Of a stretch of DNA of 51,700 nucleotides, positions 957 through 41,750 are shown in pieces. The position numbers were made by a program, and so were the translations under genes. Position 1 is the first letter of the stretch, and each line of letters starts with the position of its first letter. The stretch spans positions 1 through 51,700 of the forward strand of contig CAYNVA010000379.1 in NCBI GenBank assembly GCA_964400575.1, in the 5' to 3' direction. The stretch is from an uncultured Thermodesulfobacteriota bacterium. GTDB lineage: Bacteria; Desulfobacterota; WTBG01; CAIYCZ01; CAIRTM01. Under the pieces are notes generated by a model, which was not told where the DNA came from, did not search any database, and saw only the letters and a list, made by a program, of their open reading frames with translations.

Positions 957-1262
957 ATGAGCATTGAAAACCAGGTCGATCAGATACTGTTTGCAGCCAT
1001 TGAAGAGATCAACCAGCAATTGCCGTCCAACCAGACAATCAAGGCCGACAAAAGCACCATGCTTTTCGGCAAGGACGGCGTGCTTGATTCTCTCACACTT
1101 GTGAACCTGATCGTGGCCGCCGAACAGAAAGTGCAGGAAATCCTGAATATAGCCATCACCCTTGCCGACGAGCGGGCCATGTCGCAAAAAAACAGCCCGT
1201 TCAAATCGGTAGAGTCGCTGGCAAGCTACATTGTCGTGCTTGTTAAAGAAAAGACCAACTGA
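957..1262 (+). CDS. acyl carrier protein-like (phosphopantetheine-attachment) protein
   Basis: AAAGGAG lies 6 nt upstream of ATG 957. The 101 aa acidic protein has a GVLDSLTLV motif (DSL serine). Confidence 0.7.
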   Translation: MSIENQVDQILFAAIEEINQQLPSNQTIKADKSTMLFGKDGVLDSLTLVNLIVAAEQKVQEILNIAITLADERAMSQKNSPFKSVESLASYIVVLVKEKTN

Positions 1263-1287: not shown

Positions 1288-1989
1288 ATGAGCAAGCAGG
1301 CCGTGATGCTTATCACCGGCACCCGCAAGGGTATCGGGAGATACCTTGTTGAATATTATATCCAGCGGGGCTGGATAATCTATGGCTGCAGCCGCGAACC
1401 GGCCGACTTCACCTACGATGACTATTATCACTTCTGCCTCAGCGTGTCAGACGAGGATAAGGTGAAGGAGATGTTCGCCGAAATAGGCAGGCGGGAGGGC
1501 CGCCTGGACGTGCTTATCAACAACGCGGGCGTTGCCTCCATGAACCATGTCATTCTTACGCCCCTGTCAACCGTACACCGCGTGCTGAACACCAATGTGG
1601 TCGGGACATTTCTGTTCACCCGCGAAGCATCAAAACTGATGATGAAACGGAAATGGGGCCGCATCGTCAACTTCGCCACCGTGGCCACCGCCATGAAGCT
1701 TCAGGGCGAGGCCATCTACGCATCCTCCAAGGCAGCCATCTGCAGCCTTACCGAAATCATGGCCCGCGAACTCGGGGATCTGGGCATCACGGTCAATGCC
1801 GTGGGGCCTACGCCCACCAAGACCGACTTAATCAAATCCGTGCCCAAGGAGAAGATAGACCGGCTGCTTGAGCAGCAGGCCGTGCACCGGTTCGGCGAGT
1901 TTGCCGATATAACAAATGTCATCGACTTTTTCATCAGGCCCGAAAGCGATTTTATTACCGGGCAGGTCATCTATCTGGGAGGGATTTAA
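1288..1989 (+). CDS. short-chain dehydrogenase/reductase (FabG-like)
   Basis: The internal ATG at 1288 follows AAAGGA and avoids overlap with the ACP gene. Motifs: TGTRKGIG Rossmann motif, NNAG, YASSKAA catalytic YxxxK. Confidence 0.85.
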   Translation: MSKQAVMLITGTRKGIGRYLVEYYIQRGWIIYGCSREPADFTYDDYYHFCLSVSDEDKVKEMFAEIGRREGRLDVLINNAGVASMNHVILTPLSTVHRVLNTNVVGTFLFTREASKLMMKRKWGRIVNFATVATAMKLQGEAIYASSKAAICSLTEIMARELGDLGITVNAVGPTPTKTDLIKSVPKEKIDRLLEQQAVHRFGEFADITNVIDFFIRPESDFITGQVIYLGGI

Positions 1990-38592: not shown

Positions 38593-38886
38593 ATGGCAGA
38601 CAGAGCAAAACCCATTACCAAGGCGCAGCTGGTTGGCGAGCTGGCCGAAAAAATCGGTGCCACCAAAAAAGATGTGGGCGGCTTTTTTGACACGCTGTCG
38701 GACATTGCCTGCAAGGAAACAAAGAAAAAGGGAGAATTTACATTGCCCGGCTTTGGCAAACTGGTTCTGGCAAAGCGCAAGGCGCGCATCGGCAGAAATC
38801 CCGCCACAGGCGAAGAGATCAAAATTAAGGCCAAAACGGTCGTAAGGTTCCGCGTGGCCAAAGCCTGTAAGGACGCCATCCTTTAG
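38593..38886 (+). CDS. hup: HU/IHF-family DNA-binding protein
   Basis: 97 aa. GFGKLVLAKRKARIGRNPATGEEIKI is the HU beta-arm signature. Confidence 0.9.
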   Translation: MADRAKPITKAQLVGELAEKIGATKKDVGGFFDTLSDIACKETKKKGEFTLPGFGKLVLAKRKARIGRNPATGEEIKIKAKTVVRFRVAKACKDAIL

Positions 38887-38917
38887 CCCGAAAAATAACG
38901 GGCTGACCGAGGCACAA

Positions 38918-38956
38918 TAAAAAAGGCAGCGCCGGTAGAGGCGCTGCCTTTTTTTA
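38918..38956. terminator. bidirectional rho-independent terminator (hup and K/A-rich gene A)
   Basis: An A-run, then ggcagcgcc-ggtaga-ggcgctgcc, then a T-run. Confidence 0.75.
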
Positions 38957-38969
38957 TGAAAAAATACTT

Positions 38970-39074
38970 TTACTTTTTCTTTGTTGCGCAGCCGGCTTTT
39001 TTAGCTGTGCAGCATGCTGCTTTCTTTTTTGGTGCTGCCTTTTTAGCTGGTGCTGCCTTTTTTGTTGCCGCCAT
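38970..39074 (-). CDS. 34 aa Lys/Ala/Pro-rich basic peptide (histone H1 tail-like), copy A
   Basis: My translation is MAATKKAAPAKKAAPKKKAACCTAKKAGCATKKK-stop. AGGAGG lies 5 nt upstream and a terminator lies downstream. It is below the ORF-track length cutoff. Confidence 0.65.
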   Translation of the reverse strand: MAATKKAAPAKKAAPKKKAACCTAKKAGCATKKK

Positions 39075-39180
39075 CATATCCTCCTATAAGGGTTAGTGGT
39101 GTTGTTTGCCCGACCTTTGTCAGGGATGTAAAGAAGAATCATTGATGCTCTACGGTCTTCTGTTGTTTTCTGCTGTATTC

Positions 39181-39218
39181 AAAAAAGGCAGGGTCGTTTG
39201 AACGACCCTGCCTTTTTT
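39181..39218. terminator. rho-independent terminator after K/A-rich gene B
   Basis: aaaaaa-ggcagggtcg-tttgaa-cgaccctgcc-tttttt. Confidence 0.7.
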
Positions 39219-39236
39219 GTTAAAAACAAGAGGCGG

Positions 39237-39341
39237 TTATTTTTTCTTCGGTGCTGCTTTTTTCTTCGGTGCTGCTTTTTTCGCTGCTGCCTTCTTCGGT
39301 GCTGCTTTCTTTTTTGGTGCTGCTTTCTTTGGTGTCGCCAT
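39237..39341 (-). CDS. 34 aa Lys/Ala/Pro-rich basic peptide (histone H1 tail-like), copy B
   Basis: My translation is MATPKKAAPKKKAAPKKAAAKKAAPKKKAAPKKK-stop. AGGAG lies 6 nt upstream. The leader is conserved with copy A. Confidence 0.65.
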   Translation of the reverse strand: MATPKKAAPKKKAAPKKAAAKKAAPKKKAAPKKK

Positions 39342-39446
39342 CGTATTCTCCTATAAGTTTGGTGGTGTTTTTTGTTTTGCTATTGTCAGCTATATGAAGA
39401 AGAATGCCTGATGCTCTACGGCCTTCTGTTGTTTTCAGAATTTTTC

Positions 39447-39485
39447 AAAAAAGGCAGGATCGTTCAGACGACCCTGCCTTCTTTG
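39447..39485. terminator. rho-independent terminator-like hairpin after K/A-rich unit C
   Basis: aaaaaaggcaggatcg-ttcaga-cgaccctgcctt, followed by ctttg. Confidence 0.55.
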
Positions 39486-39502
39486 TAAAAAAACAGATTC
39501 AG

Positions 39503-39577
39503 TTATTTCTTCTTAGCTGCCTTTTTCGGTGCAGCCTTCTTGGTTGCCTTCTTTGCAGGAGCTTTCTTAGTTGCGAT
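39503..39577 (-). pseudogene. third K/A-rich unit with ATC in place of the ATG (degenerate copy or non-canonical start)
   Basis: The frame reads (I)ATKKAPAKKATKKAAPKKAAKKK-stop. The position aligned with the ATG of A and B is ATC, and the RBS is weakened (aggaaagggg). Confidence 0.35.
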
Positions 39578-39865
39578 CGTTTTCCCCTTTCCTATTGATT
39601 TGGGTTTTGGTGGTTTTCCTCCGGATTGCCGGAGGTGTAAAAAAAGGGAGAATGCCTGTATTTTTATAACACTGTCAAAGATCTTCCTTTTATAGTTCTA
39701 TTCGGCTGCTTTTTGCGTAACTTTACAACAAAATGACGGAGAAGCAAATAAAAAAATCGCATTAAACGAAAAAAAATTCAAAACCCCCTGCTTCATGGTG
39801 AAAAAAAGCAAAACAAAACCCCCTTTTTTGGGCAAAAAGGGGGTTTTTCAAGGTATTTGAGAAAG

Positions 39866-40720
39866 TTACTTTTTCTTCTTGAGTTCTTCCTCAACCATTT
39901 GCGAGAAAACCTCTATTGACCGGCCTTTTGGGGCAATACCGTTGATATATATTGTCGGCACAGCCCGGACTCGCGCCTGTCGGCTCGCCTGCAGGTCCTG
40001 CTGCATGATGTCCTTCACCGTGGCCCCCGCTATATCTTTCTCGAACTTCTGCATATCCGCGCCCGCAGCCTGCACATGCTTGCGGATTGTTTCGTCGTTG
40101 AGCGTGCTGAAGTTGGTGAAAAAAAGTTCGGTAACCTTTTCATACTTATTCTGCTGGGCAGCGGCAAGCGCTGCAAGAGAGGCCTTCTCAGCAAATTTAT
40201 GCATGGGAAGGGGGTAGTGCTTGATCACAAGCCTCACATCATTGGGATATTTTTTCAGCAGCTCCTGCAGCAGGGGATATATCTTGGCGCAGTAGGGGCA
40301 CTGATAATCAACGAATGCCGTCACCGTCACCGGTGCCTTCATAGCGCCGATAACGGGTGATTTGCCGACTTCTATAGTGTTAATCAAAGCATATTGAATG
40401 ACCGCAATTTGTGGCGCATCCTGAGCCGTGAGATAGAAGGTCGATTCATCGGGAGACAGGGCAATACGGGAATAGGCTTTCGTCAGCGGGATACTGTCAG
40501 TTACTTTTGCTTCCGGCACCGAATAGACCATGATGCTTTTCTTGCCCAGAATATATACCGTTGAGCCGTCACGGGATAGTGTGATATCCTTGGCAATGTC
40601 TTCAATCTGAATGTCCTTGAGCATGTCAAACTTGATCTTGGCATCTGCCCGCGGGGCAGTAGAGACTATCGCGCACAGAGCGCACAGAATCGCACACAGG
40701 AACCGGATTTGTTTTTTCAT
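39866..40720 (-). CDS. periplasmic DsbA-family thiol:disulfide oxidoreductase with N-terminal beta-repeat region
   Basis: Signal peptide, CPYC active site and AAGGAG RBS. Confidence 0.7.
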   Translation of the reverse strand: MKKQIRFLCAILCALCAIVSTAPRADAKIKFDMLKDIQIEDIAKDITLSRDGSTVYILGKKSIMVYSVPEAKVTDSIPLTKAYSRIALSPDESTFYLTAQDAPQIAVIQYALINTIEVGKSPVIGAMKAPVTVTAFVDYQCPYCAKIYPLLQELLKKYPNDVRLVIKHYPLPMHKFAEKASLAALAAAQQNKYEKVTELFFTNFSTLNDETIRKHVQAAGADMQKFEKDIAGATVKDIMQQDLQASRQARVRAVPTIYINGIAPKGRSIEVFSQMVEEELKKKK

Positions 40721-40805
40721 GAACGCTTTCTCCTTAATAATGGTTATTACAATAACTGCCTGTACTGATAATTAAATGATTTTGTCGACCAAAGCAAGTG
40801 TTATC

Positions 40806-41750
40806 ATGCGCTGTTGTGCGGTACTGGTGCTGCTGGTATGCGGCGCAGGGTATGCCGACTGCGCTCCGCCAGTGAAGCCATTGCGCAATCAGCGGGAGCA
40901 TTACCCGCATGTCATTCGCATGGATGAACTGCTGGCTCATGCCCAGAATATGGCCCCTGCAGGCGTCAGCCGGCGGCATGATACATCCGGGCCGCTGCCC
41001 GACTATCTTGAGGCTCTGCTTGCCGACGGCAGGCTTTCAATCGGCCTTGGCATCGGCACGGAAGACCTCGGGTCAGTACGGGTGCCTGCTCAGCATGAAC
41101 AGCGAACCATCAGGCGGCAGATGCGCATCTGCGGCAGGCCAGTGCTTGTGGAAGCCCGGCTCATCCTGACGCGGGAAGAATTCAAGCAGGGGCTTGCGGA
41201 GTGCGAAATTCTTTTCGTTACGTCACATTCACGCTTCGGCGCAGGCCCCGTTTTCCTGCTCGACGGCAAGGCATACCCCTTTCAGATGCAGACAACGCCG
41301 GGCTACGAAATTATCATGCCCGATGATGAAATCTGCGGCTATCCGGGCAGGGTAAAAAGGCGATTTTACAATAAAGGCAAAAACAAAAGCTACACGGTGT
41401 TTGAGCCTGACGGCTCCGATCTTGATACAGCACGGCCCCTGCACGCCTATCAGCTGCTGGTGCTTTCAACCTGCACGAGCCTGAAGCATTTCCGTGACGA
41501 GATACAATCTTTTCGCTCCATCTACCCCACCACCGCCATTTTTACCACGCGGGCAGCCTGCATGGACACGGGCATGAACATTTTCATGCGCATGCTTGCG
41601 GCAATCTTCCAGGCCCGCCCGCTTCCCGACATTGTGTCGGCCATGAATCAGGAGTACCTGGATGTTGCCGCCCGGCAGGTGCGCAAAGGGTCTGCCTCAT
41701 GGAAGGCAGTTGAGAAAATGTATACCCTGGGGATACATACATTGCCGTAG
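40806..41750 (+). CDS. exported hypothetical protein
   Basis: The internal ATG 40806 gives MRCCAVLVLLVCGAGYADC, a signal or lipoprotein-like N-terminus. No family recognised. Confidence 0.5.
   Translation: MRCCAVLVLLVCGAGYADCAPPVKPLRNQREHYPHVIRMDELLAHAQNMAPAGVSRRHDTSGPLPDYLEALLADGRLSIGLGIGTEDLGSVRVPAQHEQRTIRRQMRICGRPVLVEARLILTREEFKQGLAECEILFVTSHSRFGAGPVFLLDGKAYPFQMQTTPGYEIIMPDDEICGYPGRVKRRFYNKGKNKSYTVFEPDGSDLDTARPLHAYQLLVLSTCTSLKHFRDEIQSFRSIYPTTAIFTTRAACMDTGMNIFMRMLAAIFQARPLPDIVSAMNQEYLDVAARQVRKGSASWKAVEKMYTLGIHTLP

Follow-up and report, generated by a model that had tools for sequence, protein, structure and literature searches.

Conserved tandem micro-genes predicted to encode free-standing Lys/Ala/Pro-rich peptides beside an HU-family gene in an uncultured Thermodesulfobacteriota bacterium

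Three tandem units between a DsbA-like gene and hup

The DNA analysed here (hereafter, the window) is a stretch of 51,700 nucleotides of contig CAYNVA010000379.1 from an uncultured Thermodesulfobacteriota bacterium, in which an earlier sequence-only reading had proposed three tandem micro-genes for Lys/Ala/Pro-rich (K/A/P) peptides resembling histone H1 tails. At this place we find three head-to-tail units of ~266 bp (A, B, and C) on the minus strand (38915-39720), located between a gene for a DsbA-like protein and the convergent HU-family gene hup; Tandem Repeats Finder describes the units with a period of 266, 1.9 copies, 78% matches and a score of 641. The small open reading frames (ORFs) contained in these units are the sole K/A/P-rich open frames within the window, and their comparison with related loci indicates that they are real genes, not chance ORFs. 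No known family claims their products and, judging from the sequences, the known H1-like polycationic module is here encoded alone, in conserved paralogous micro-genes.

Units B and A display the same order of elements, namely a leader block, a small hairpin, an A/C-rich spacer, the Shine-Dalgarno (SD) sequence AGGAG(G), ATG, an ORF of 34 codons, TAA and a terminator, all on the minus strand. The starts of the two ORFs are 267 bp apart, and internal repeats of 15/18 nt are found inside the micro-ORFs. Micro-ORF B (39237..39341) reads MATPKKAAPKKKAAPKKAAAKKAAPKKKAAPKKK up to its stop codon and would yield a Cys-free peptide with 15 Lys and a predicted charge of ~+14.5; its SD (AGGAG, 39348..39352) lies 6 nt before the ATG, and its intrinsic terminator (39180..39219) is a 19-bp perfect inverted repeat (-31.7 kcal/mol, z -8.1). 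Micro-ORF A (38970..39074) reads MAATKKAAPAKKAAPKKKAACCTAKKAGCATKKK up to its stop, bears Cys residues and has a predicted charge of ~+11.5; its SD (AGGAGG, 39080..39085) is found 5 nt before the ATG at 39074. The ORF list gives this frame as 35 aa from the ATG at 39077, one codon further upstream, but alignment of the orthologues identifies 39074 as the conserved start. The terminator that follows (38919..38954; -27.2 kcal/mol, z -6.4) is bidirectional and common to ORF A on the minus strand and to the convergent hup on the plus strand.

For the leader block, AACAGAAG(R)CCGTAGAGCATCA, there are exactly two occurrences in the 51.7 kb, one in unit A (39164-39143) and one in unit B (39430-39409), vs 0 expected. 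In unit B (39409..39430) it reads AACAGAAGGCCGTAGAGCATCA, and conservation extends downstream through CAGGCATTCTTCTT. Both in the window and in the related loci, this block was seen solely upstream of the two micro-ORF types represented by B and A (types 2 and 3, see below).

Unit C, holding the first micro-gene, has ATC in place of ATG. Its micro-ORF C (39503..39577; type 1) consists of 24 codons, reading IATKKAPAKKATKKAAPKKAAKKK up to the stop, and is preceded by the SD-like site GGAAAGGGG (39584..39592), invariant in all orthologues of this unit, and by a hairpin of the 5′ untranslated region (5′ UTR), CCTCCGG-CAAT-CCGGAGG (39618..39635), which is predicted in the minimum-free-energy (MFE) fold. 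The intrinsic terminator of unit C (39441..39485) is likewise a bidirectional hairpin (-30.9 kcal/mol, z -7.4). As for the intergenic region upstream (39578..39865), corresponding to the promoter region and 5′ UTR of the first micro-gene, it contains a perfect TTGACA (39678-39673), TATAAA (39668-39663) and CATTCT (39654-39649), followed by a pyrimidine tract. None of 200 shuffled sequences was as stable as the terminator hairpin of any of the three units, and the terminators are considered bidirectional because each hairpin has a flanking A-run and T-run.

Thus, the layout proposed from the sequence alone stands in every point, coordinates and sequences included: the positions (39074..38970 and 39341..39237), length and spacing of ORFs A and B, the AGGAG(G) 5-6 nt upstream of each (39085-39080 and 39352-39348), the leader common to both, the third unit with its K/A/P frame, terminator and ATC, and, by folding (-27.2 to -31.7 kcal/mol), a strong terminator for every unit.

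Related loci and coding evidence

The coding strand of the micro-genes is nearly T-free, and all three sense frames are largely open by virtue of this composition. The length of the ORFs is therefore no proof of genes, and the case for genes rests on comparative data. Related loci were gathered by a genome scan with the DsbA-like protein, by exact look-ups of homologues, and by an HU-anchored metagenome scan. The same gene order, i.e., the DsbA-like gene, one to three K/A/P micro-ORFs and the convergent hup, was found in at least 8 other lineages, whose DsbA-like proteins are 57-88% identical to that of the window; hup is present in every micro-gene locus reaching far enough downstream. Three micro-ORFs occur in L002 and L097 (DsbA-like identity 75%, as in the related L007, whose contig stops after the Cys-type ORF) and in L088/L089 (83%). 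Two are found in L001 (76%), in L092 and L093 (78-79%; the second is frame-shifted in L093), in L094 and L095 (80-87%, based on truncated gene calls; frame-shifted) and in L098 (61%; the second is cut by the contig end), and a single one in L099/L100 (57%). A further contig (72%) has a 29-aa gene call at the equivalent place, a correspondence that concerns the gene call only and no compared DNA. The records of these relatives read Deltaproteobacteria or delta proteobacterium, and the DsbA-like homologues are labelled Pseudomonadota or Desulfobacterota.

In the short-read assemblies, the SD, ATG, TAA and terminator are kept in every unit, with the exception of the ATC in the window. In L099 and in unit 3 of L088, whose leaders are otherwise unrelated in sequence, the K/A/P frame is still preceded by the SD and the ATG. 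Overall, the reading frame and ribosome-binding site are preserved in the homologous regions of L001, L002/L007/L097, L088/L089, L092, L095, L098 and L099/L100; the sequence-only reading had named the loss of these features as what would speak against it. Length differences between orthologues amount to whole codons (24-62 aa) and include gaps of 3 and 6 nt, which do not correspond to whole repeat units. Substitutions fall almost all at third codon positions. For instance, L001 and L098 encode an identical 29-aa peptide despite 10 nucleotide differences, all synonymous, and the near-identical metagenome contig L087 differs from the window at 2 positions in ~330 nt, both synonymous and both in ORF A. 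Outside the Cys codons, all 46 T's (46/46) occupy codon position 3. Examples of orthologous peptides are MATTKKAAPAKKAAPAKKAAPKKAAAKKK, MATAKKAPAKKAPAKKAAPAKKAACCTAKKAGCATKKK, a 62-aa (APAKK)n form and, in the most distant lineage, MATKKAAPAKKAAPKKCGCAPAKKVVSKAKKK.

Codon use also departs markedly from that of ordinary genes of the window (GCA 56% vs 21%, CCT 51% vs 15%, ACA 59% vs 20%), which fits selection for an unstructured, efficiently translated mRNA. On the opposite strand, the ORFs of the FFGAAFF type had been dismissed as antisense artefacts, and our comparison agrees: their start is not conserved (ATG 38956 is ATA in L002/L007), no SD precedes them, and 1-nt indels put their extension through the 5′ UTR into different frames in the window and in L002. 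Taken together, these patterns of conservation argue that the K/A/P frames are very probably the translated products.

The assemblies of L092-L095 contain evident indel errors, flanking kinase and DsbA-like genes being split or truncated; for this reason, the frameshifts in the micro-ORFs of L093-L095 are not counted as pseudogenes. The broken frames lie at L093 4284-4600, L094 3732-4410 and L095 4228-4541, in long-read-style assemblies with records named contig_NNNNN, and the neighbours are broken in the same assemblies (the kinase in L092, the DsbA-like gene in L094 and L095). The A-rich runs of the micro-genes appear to be particularly prone to indel errors in assembly, a further reason for their escaping annotation.

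The contigs L088 and L089, which derive from different samples and encode identical DsbA-like proteins, differ in their middle micro-gene (L088 4391-4525 vs L089 4391-4495; 44 vs 34 aa) by a 30-nt (10-codon) in-frame indel of a repeat unit. This is a strain-level length polymorphism like that reported for hctB and algP.

Paralogue types, the Cys pair and the start of unit C

The micro-genes fall into three types. Type 1, at the position of unit C, is 24-29 aa long (27-29 aa in the orthologues), with the GGAAAGGGG SD and an upstream region of its own. Type 2, in the middle, is Cys-free, measures 34, 44 or 62 aa, and is missing from the two-gene loci. Type 3, the last, is characterized by a vicinal Cys pair in a C-terminus of the form ...CCTAKKAGCATKKK or ...(G/A)CCA(A/T)KKK; the C-terminal CCTAKKAGCATKKK is identical in ORF A of the window, in L002/L007/L097 and in L088/L089. 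The single gene of L099 carries CGC, and every locus readable in full has one peptide with two such Cys (CC or CxC). Since the types are orthologously conserved with different leaders, the paralogues are old and individually maintained, not products of recent amplification. The proposed tandem amplification beside hup holds, then, as regards the tandem units but not as regards a recent origin; similarly, the Cys residues of copy A are real but are no peculiarity of this genome.

The ATC of unit C is unique to the window, all of the at least 8 orthologues having ATG. In unit C, the SD, frame, stop and terminator are all intact, and in-frame deletions are the only other differences from its orthologues. 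Either the gene is initiated very weakly, or it was lost very recently, or the ATC reflects an error of assembly.

In the Cys-type ORF A, TGC (Cys) and GCA, the dominant Ala codon, are reverse complements of each other, which makes the codons for Ala-Ala-Cys-Cys, GCAGCATGCTGC (window 39009-39020), a perfect palindrome of 12 nt; two more palindromes, GCCGGC and TGCGCA, follow further on. A local inversion of Ala codons may have given rise to the Cys pair. The synonymous sites of the Cys-type C-terminus are unusually conserved between lineages.

Upstream region and leaders

Over the 287 nt that precede unit C, the window, L001 and L002, which represent three species, share 90-92% identity. By comparison, identity is 56-66% in the region upstream of hup, 62-80% at third codon positions of the flanking genes, and 79-90% in the flanking coding genes overall. 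The substitutions in the 287-nt region would alter most amino acids of the small ORFs overlapping it; since these ORFs change their amino acids so freely, the constraint acts at the DNA or RNA level. It could reflect promoter architecture, a long structured leader, or a platform for a regulator. Promoter candidates picked manually (TTGACA-N16-19-CATTCT, or TATAAA as -10 element) conflict with each other, and the spacing of a sigma-54 promoter does not suit the leader block.

All leaders are built alike: a pyrimidine tract is followed by a stable hairpin, and ~20-30 nt of unpaired, A/C-rich sequence then lead to the SD. In L099 and L098 the hairpin persists although its sequence differs; in L098 it is a GC stem with a UUCG loop and, in unit 1, a shifted stem: the unit-1 hairpin of L098, CCUCCGCA-UUG-UGCGGGG, differs in sequence from the hairpin at window 39618..39635 and lies at the same place. 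The unit-1 leaders were folded one by one (six of the seven aligned sequences are nearly identical, and the L098 hairpin is off by one position). The fold of the type-1 leader gave z-scores of -3.2 in the window, -2.4 in L098 and -2.8 in L099; the folds of the type-2 and type-3 leaders were not significant. In most MFE folds, the pyrimidine tract (CATTCTCCCTTTTTTT / CATTCTTCTT) pairs with the SD. Hypothetically, such a pairing could sequester the SD and work as a thermometer or as a switch controlled by a factor, depending on where transcription starts.

Neighbouring genes

The gene convergent to the micro-genes, hup (38593..38886, plus strand), matches the HU/IHF family (DNABII; PF00216, E 8e-26), so that the adjacency to hup seen in the sequence-only reading is real. 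The protein scores under the NCBIfam equivalog cut-offs for both HU and IHF, and ends at residue 97 without a tail; the micro-ORFs lie on the opposite strand, behind the common terminator. We treat hup as the context of the micro-genes, and its membership in one system with them as a conjecture that may or may not hold. Upstream, the DsbA-like gene, which encodes a thioredoxin-fold protein (39866..40720, minus strand) and has its own terminator (39847-39815), served as synteny anchor. Loci of DsbA-like paralogues (L003-L006, L090/L091) contained neither hup nor micro-ORFs and are uninformative for that reason.

Divergent from the DsbA-like gene, the window encodes a 324-aa protein (40776-41750, plus strand) without Pfam or NCBIfam family. 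It is syntenic in most micro-gene loci (322-357 aa, no Pfam matches, shorter in the indel-prone assemblies), the exceptions being L099 and L100. The other neighbours recognised by Pfam, a PAS/GAF kinase, ParE, an M6 peptidase and a TylF methyltransferase ~6 kb off, are all outside the conserved block.

Family searches and annotation

The window peptides have no match in Pfam or NCBIfam, including Hc2 (PF07382) at E <= 1. The closest approach is that of the 62-aa orthologue to PF07382 (15.9 bits, E 0.015), which remains under the gathering score of 40 bits; a 58-aa orthologue reaches 10.1 bits. The Hc2-like trait of Lys-rich short tandem repeats with variable copy number is present (34, 44 and 62 aa; 10 codons between L088 and L089). 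The linker histone family H1/H5 (PF00538) is not matched, and with 24-62 aa the peptides are too short for its globular domain. Neither is the arrangement of HupB/MDP1, i.e., a K/A/P tail fused to a PF00216 fold, found in hup, nor that of AlgP/PhaF in the peptides, where the K/A/P sequence starts a few residues after Met, behind a short N-terminus of the M-A-T/A type and with no N-terminal domain. A search of the PDB returned only a chance-level match to an H2B tail, a homology search with the 58-aa orthologue no match, and phmmer with ORF A against 1.84 billion representatives no match; these homology negatives are silent on distant relatives, because in a local test the correction for composition bias left only self or near-identical matches significant for a database of this size. 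No family of Rfam 15 was detected at its gathering score (best 38.8 vs 49 bits, for RefA9 on the terminator of the dsbA-like gene, and 33 vs 58.7), and the sub-threshold matches at permissive E-values are driven by the terminators. In the literature, we found no description of free-standing bacterial K/A/P micro-proteins.

An exact look-up among 15 billion predicted proteins was carried out with the 3 peptides of the window and 9 orthologous ones (12 different peptides, 13 sequences with two alternative starts), and none was present in its true form. The sole match is an unnamed 37-aa call of the L100 peptide, extended 5 codons upstream. On L087, JGI called a 46-aa antisense ORF instead (1117-1257, plus strand), and NCBI annotated the antisense shadow as hypothetical protein NTX06_09800 (P0109); P0110 is likewise of the FFGAAFF type. 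Micro-genes of this kind are systematically missed: gene callers skip them or take the antisense strand, composition correction blinds searches with hidden Markov models, and trypsin would reduce the peptides to di- to penta-peptides. Similar genes are probably hidden elsewhere by the same blind spot, one instance being a 35-aa K/A/P micro-ORF, MAKAAAKKAAPKKAAAPKKAAAKKAAPKKAAAKKK, with its own terminator (L101 4072-4179, minus strand), on an unrelated contig of 37% GC, which was found solely via its gene-called antisense shadow (P0111).

Two other occurrences of K/A/P sequence were noted. In another lineage, L036 (HU 75% identical) contains, after hup and on the same strand, a 59-aa ORF (1427-1606, plus strand) with a helical-looking N-terminal half and a K/A/P/R tail, MASSKLLKKWIAANKK...KKAAPKKKPAKRKAAKKKRR, and no significant Pfam family (DUF6465 at E 8.6 only), a second case, of a different kind, in which hup is paired with a small polycationic protein. 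Scanning viral contigs with the pattern M-A-x-x-KKAAP..KKAA returned only longer phage proteins with K/A/P N-termini and zero free-standing micro-ORFs. Among them is a family of 88-92 aa (L104, L109, L110, L113, L114, L118) that starts with MATKKKAAPKKAAKKKPAKKTAKKAVKK... and has a non-repetitive C-terminal segment, i.e., K/A/P modules carried by viral proteins.

Proposed function and alternative explanations

The three units would be independently terminated genes, each apparently a separate transcription unit, whose products are predicted to be micro-proteins (24-34 aa in the window, at most 62 aa in the relatives) that are extremely basic and intrinsically disordered. The peptides are composed of ~35-45% Lys, the remainder being mostly Ala and Pro, and disorder is expected because of this low complexity. 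Calculated masses, initiator Met included, are 3404 Da for A, 3511 Da for B and 2524 Da for C (if it begins with Met), and would be ~131 Da smaller after removal of the Met ahead of Ala. A structured leader, an A/C-rich spacer, a strong SD, a short T-free ORF with atypical, A/T-ending codons and a strong terminator would ensure a high output per unit. The resulting free polycations could neutralise and bridge polyanions, above all chromosomal DNA, like the K/A/P tails of larger proteins. They would thus supply in trans the tail that actinobacterial HU has in cis, possibly acting with the adjacent HU-fold protein. The Cys pair of type 3 may allow intermolecular disulfide or metal bridges, by which this peptide, as in protamines, would cross-link in a bivalent and switchable manner. 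For the type-1 gene, a promoter and leader of extraordinary conservation imply that it might be regulated separately, and in the present genome, with its ATC, it would be barely translated or newly inactivated.

That these are abundant polycationic micro-proteins binding and bridging DNA or other polyanions is a proposal by analogy, which we regard as evenly poised between right and wrong; the nucleoid or RNA association suggested by the sequence-only reading is likewise a conjecture. In favour of the proposal, the composition and the 5-6-residue periodicity (AAPKK / APAKK) are those of K/A/P modules known to bind DNA. The K/A/P intrinsically disordered region (IDR) of MDP1/HupB cross-links DNA duplexes in a length-dependent manner, and its compaction activity was transferred to E. 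coli HU by fusion (PMC10810275). KPAA-repeat peptides bind DNA in vitro, and the AlgP tail is required for function and for the spacing of polyphosphate (polyP) granules (PMC9239181). Furthermore, PAKKA repeats modulate DNA binding by Ku of M. smegmatis (PMC3553676), and Hc2 contains a variable number of Lys-rich pentamers (PMC2848022). A more far-reaching version, also by analogy, appears possible if doubtful: a protamine-like chromatin system, operating in a clade of uncultured anaerobic (Desulfobacterota-like) deltaproteobacteria, of three separately regulated 3-6-kDa peptides, two of them plain K/A/P polycations and the third dimerising through its Cys pair by disulfide or metal, that would provide switchable DNA-DNA bridging under redox or metal stress and a trans-acting, dosage-tunable equivalent of the HU tail, with similar shadow-hidden micro-genes in other phyla.

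Several findings weigh against the DNA-bridging proposal or the evidence beneath it. The IDR or the N-terminal domain of MDP1 alone has limited DNA affinity (PMC5974015), and compaction by MDP1 needed 38-56 or more IDR residues (PMC10810275), so that, with their 24-34 aa, the peptides may by themselves condense only weakly. The linkage to hup consists of convergent adjacency within one clade only. Of 80 loci in the HU-anchored metagenome scan, 1 contained a micro-ORF (L007, HU 89% identical), and the 79 others, with HU identity <=77%, had no such ORFs nearby; the association with hup is therefore clade-specific and, within the sequence reached, the hup-linked cluster appears confined to one clade of uncultured deltaproteobacteria. 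The micro-ORF of L101 has no SD; it follows rplU-rpmA (L21/L27) at a distance of ~250 nt, and hup is absent from its surroundings. A consensus promoter scan of the window returned no promoter for the micro-genes, and TTGACA and CATTCT are separated by 16 to 19 nt, depending on the lineage. Finally, the antisense FFGAAFF frame has the same wobble positions as the sense frame and is nearly as synonymous: amino-acid changes in the sense and the antisense frame in three comparisons were 0 against 1, 6 against 6, and 3 against 5. The codon-position test was dropped as proof of the strand on this account, and the strand assignment therefore rests on the SD, ATG and TAA and on the non-conserved antisense starts.

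Other partners and other roles can be envisaged. The main partner could be RNA or the ribosome, the peptides being ribosome-associated micro-proteins, RNA chaperones or scaffolds of condensates; polycations bind RNA as readily as DNA, monocistronic genes with strong SD, terminator and atypical codons are as found for very abundant components of the translation apparatus, and the sole K/A/P micro-ORF outside the clade (L101) directly follows the L21-L27 genes. This adjacency is, however, a single case, and a length that ranges from 24 to 62 aa and differs even between two samples of a single species would hardly suit a fixed pocket on rRNA. Among ribosomal proteins, the tiny bL36, bS22, bTHX and eL41 are Arg/Lys-rich, not Ala/Pro-repetitive, and constant in length; we consider an RNA or ribosome partner unlikely. 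A similar doubt, slightly stronger, applies to the idea that the peptides coat or tether granules of polyP or polyhydroxyalkanoate (PHA), with the chromosome at most an anchoring surface. It draws on AlgP, whose KPAA-repeat tail is needed for even spacing of the polyP granules from which the protein was recovered, and on the homologous tail of PhaF (PMC9239181), the peptides being of the same kind of composition as these tails. On the other hand, AlgP, PhaF and PhaM owe their granule specificity to a separate N-terminal domain, the peptides correspond to the tail alone, and Pfam scans of 14 neighbouring genes (33.6-51.4 kb) detected no polyP or PHA gene.

It is very unlikely that the units are non-coding, acting as small RNAs with repeated A/G/C-rich motifs, or that the hydrophobic FFGAAFF ORF is the real gene, the K/A/P frame being incidental in either case. 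The T-poor strand opens frames by composition and the antisense frame is nearly as conserved; the JGI and NCBI pipelines annotated the antisense ORFs, the terminators are bidirectional, and the synonymous conservation in the Cys-type C-terminus is a further point on this side. Nevertheless, every lineage has a canonical SD at 5-8 nt and an ATG ahead of the K/A/P frame, a TAA invariably comes before the terminator, and the antisense frame has the unconserved start, the missing SD and the frame-shifted 5′ UTR part described above, no Rfam family being reached at threshold. The same features (no SD, unconserved start, extension frame-shifted between relatives) led us to reject a type I toxin-antitoxin system with the antisense ORF as hydrophobic toxin. 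Tandem paralogous genes for short precursors, with Cys and Thr in the last copy, could also suggest exported cationic antimicrobial peptides or precursors of ribosomally synthesised and post-translationally modified peptides (RiPPs) with thioether rings at Cys/Thr; histone-derived K/A/P peptides are reported to be antimicrobial. We rate this as highly improbable, given that there is no signal or leader peptide, that the conserved synteny block contains no modification enzyme, protease-transporter or immunity gene, and that two of the three paralogues lack the Cys, Ser or Thr pattern; the RiPP reading was rejected on gene order and neighbours. Finally, a short codon-biased ORF followed by an intrinsic terminator is the classical layout of an attenuator, here one sensing Lys/Ala/Pro codons through a leader peptide, and weak sub-threshold Rfam matches to Thr_leader and L20_leader point the same way. 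Their scores stay far below the gathering scores (30 vs 55 and 33 vs 58.7), the folds of the terminator regions contain the terminator hairpin only and no antiterminator pairing, and no structural gene lies downstream on the same strand, where the convergent hup and then a plus-strand histidine kinase are located; gene order comes close to refuting the attenuator, to which we assign a very small probability.

Relation to known systems

Bacterial H1-like K/A/P sequences are known only as tails on folded proteins, namely HU, AlgP, PhaF, Ku, Hc2 and HBHA. Conserved genes for a free-standing tail would represent the minimal natural form of this module and allow the activity of the tail to be studied without its partner domain. 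If the DNA- and polyanion-binding role proposed above is true, the micro-genes would add a so far overlooked kind of nucleoid or polyanion-binding component, in an uncultured group that is widespread in the environment.

Among the small polycationic proteins, protamines use Cys for intermolecular disulfide or zinc cross-links. Like the peptides described here, the C-terminal domain of H1 and the protamines are polycationic, S/TPKK-AKKA-like low-complexity sequences that neutralise the charge of DNA, and protamines are also tiny; yet the winged-helix globular domain of H1 is missing here, protamines are Arg-rich whereas the peptides are Lys/Ala/Pro-rich, and the low complexity bars any conclusion on an evolutionary link. 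Another precedent, ScvA, is Arg/Gln-rich and ~30 aa long. ScvA and Hq1 of Coxiella burnetii are small basic DNA-binding proteins enriched in the small-cell variant, which has a condensed nucleoid (PMC4766238). ScvA is encoded by a single gene and is not known to be K/A/P-repetitive, in contrast to the tandem paralogues found here.

Larger proteins offer a closer likeness in sequence. The chlamydial Hc2 (hctB), the sole Pfam resemblance found, likewise contains Lys/Ala-rich pentamer repeats in strain-variable number and condenses the nucleoid (PMC2848022), but with 165-237 aa and without the Pro-regular AAPKK/APAKK register or a Cys pair. AlgP (AlgR3) and PhaF/PhaM of Pseudomonas and Ralstonia share the KPAA/AAKP repeats and the H1-like composition, and their repeat region is a mutational hot spot (PMC9239181); their tails of 150-200 aa are, however, carried by a folded N-terminal domain that confers granule or regulatory specificity, whereas the peptides have no other domain. 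The tails of mycobacterial HU (HupB/MDP1/Hlp) and of Streptomyces HupS resemble the peptides in being Lys/Ala/Pro-rich, polycationic and disordered, with PAKK/AKKA repeats (PMC10810275, PMC5974015, PMC2932737), and the activity of the HU tail, which bundles DNA duplexes, is length-dependent and tied to the HU fold. This tail comprises ~100 aa covalently fused to HU, while the peptides, of 24-62 aa, are encoded by separate convergent genes with their own terminators, and the micro-genes comprise three paralogue types, one of them with Cys.

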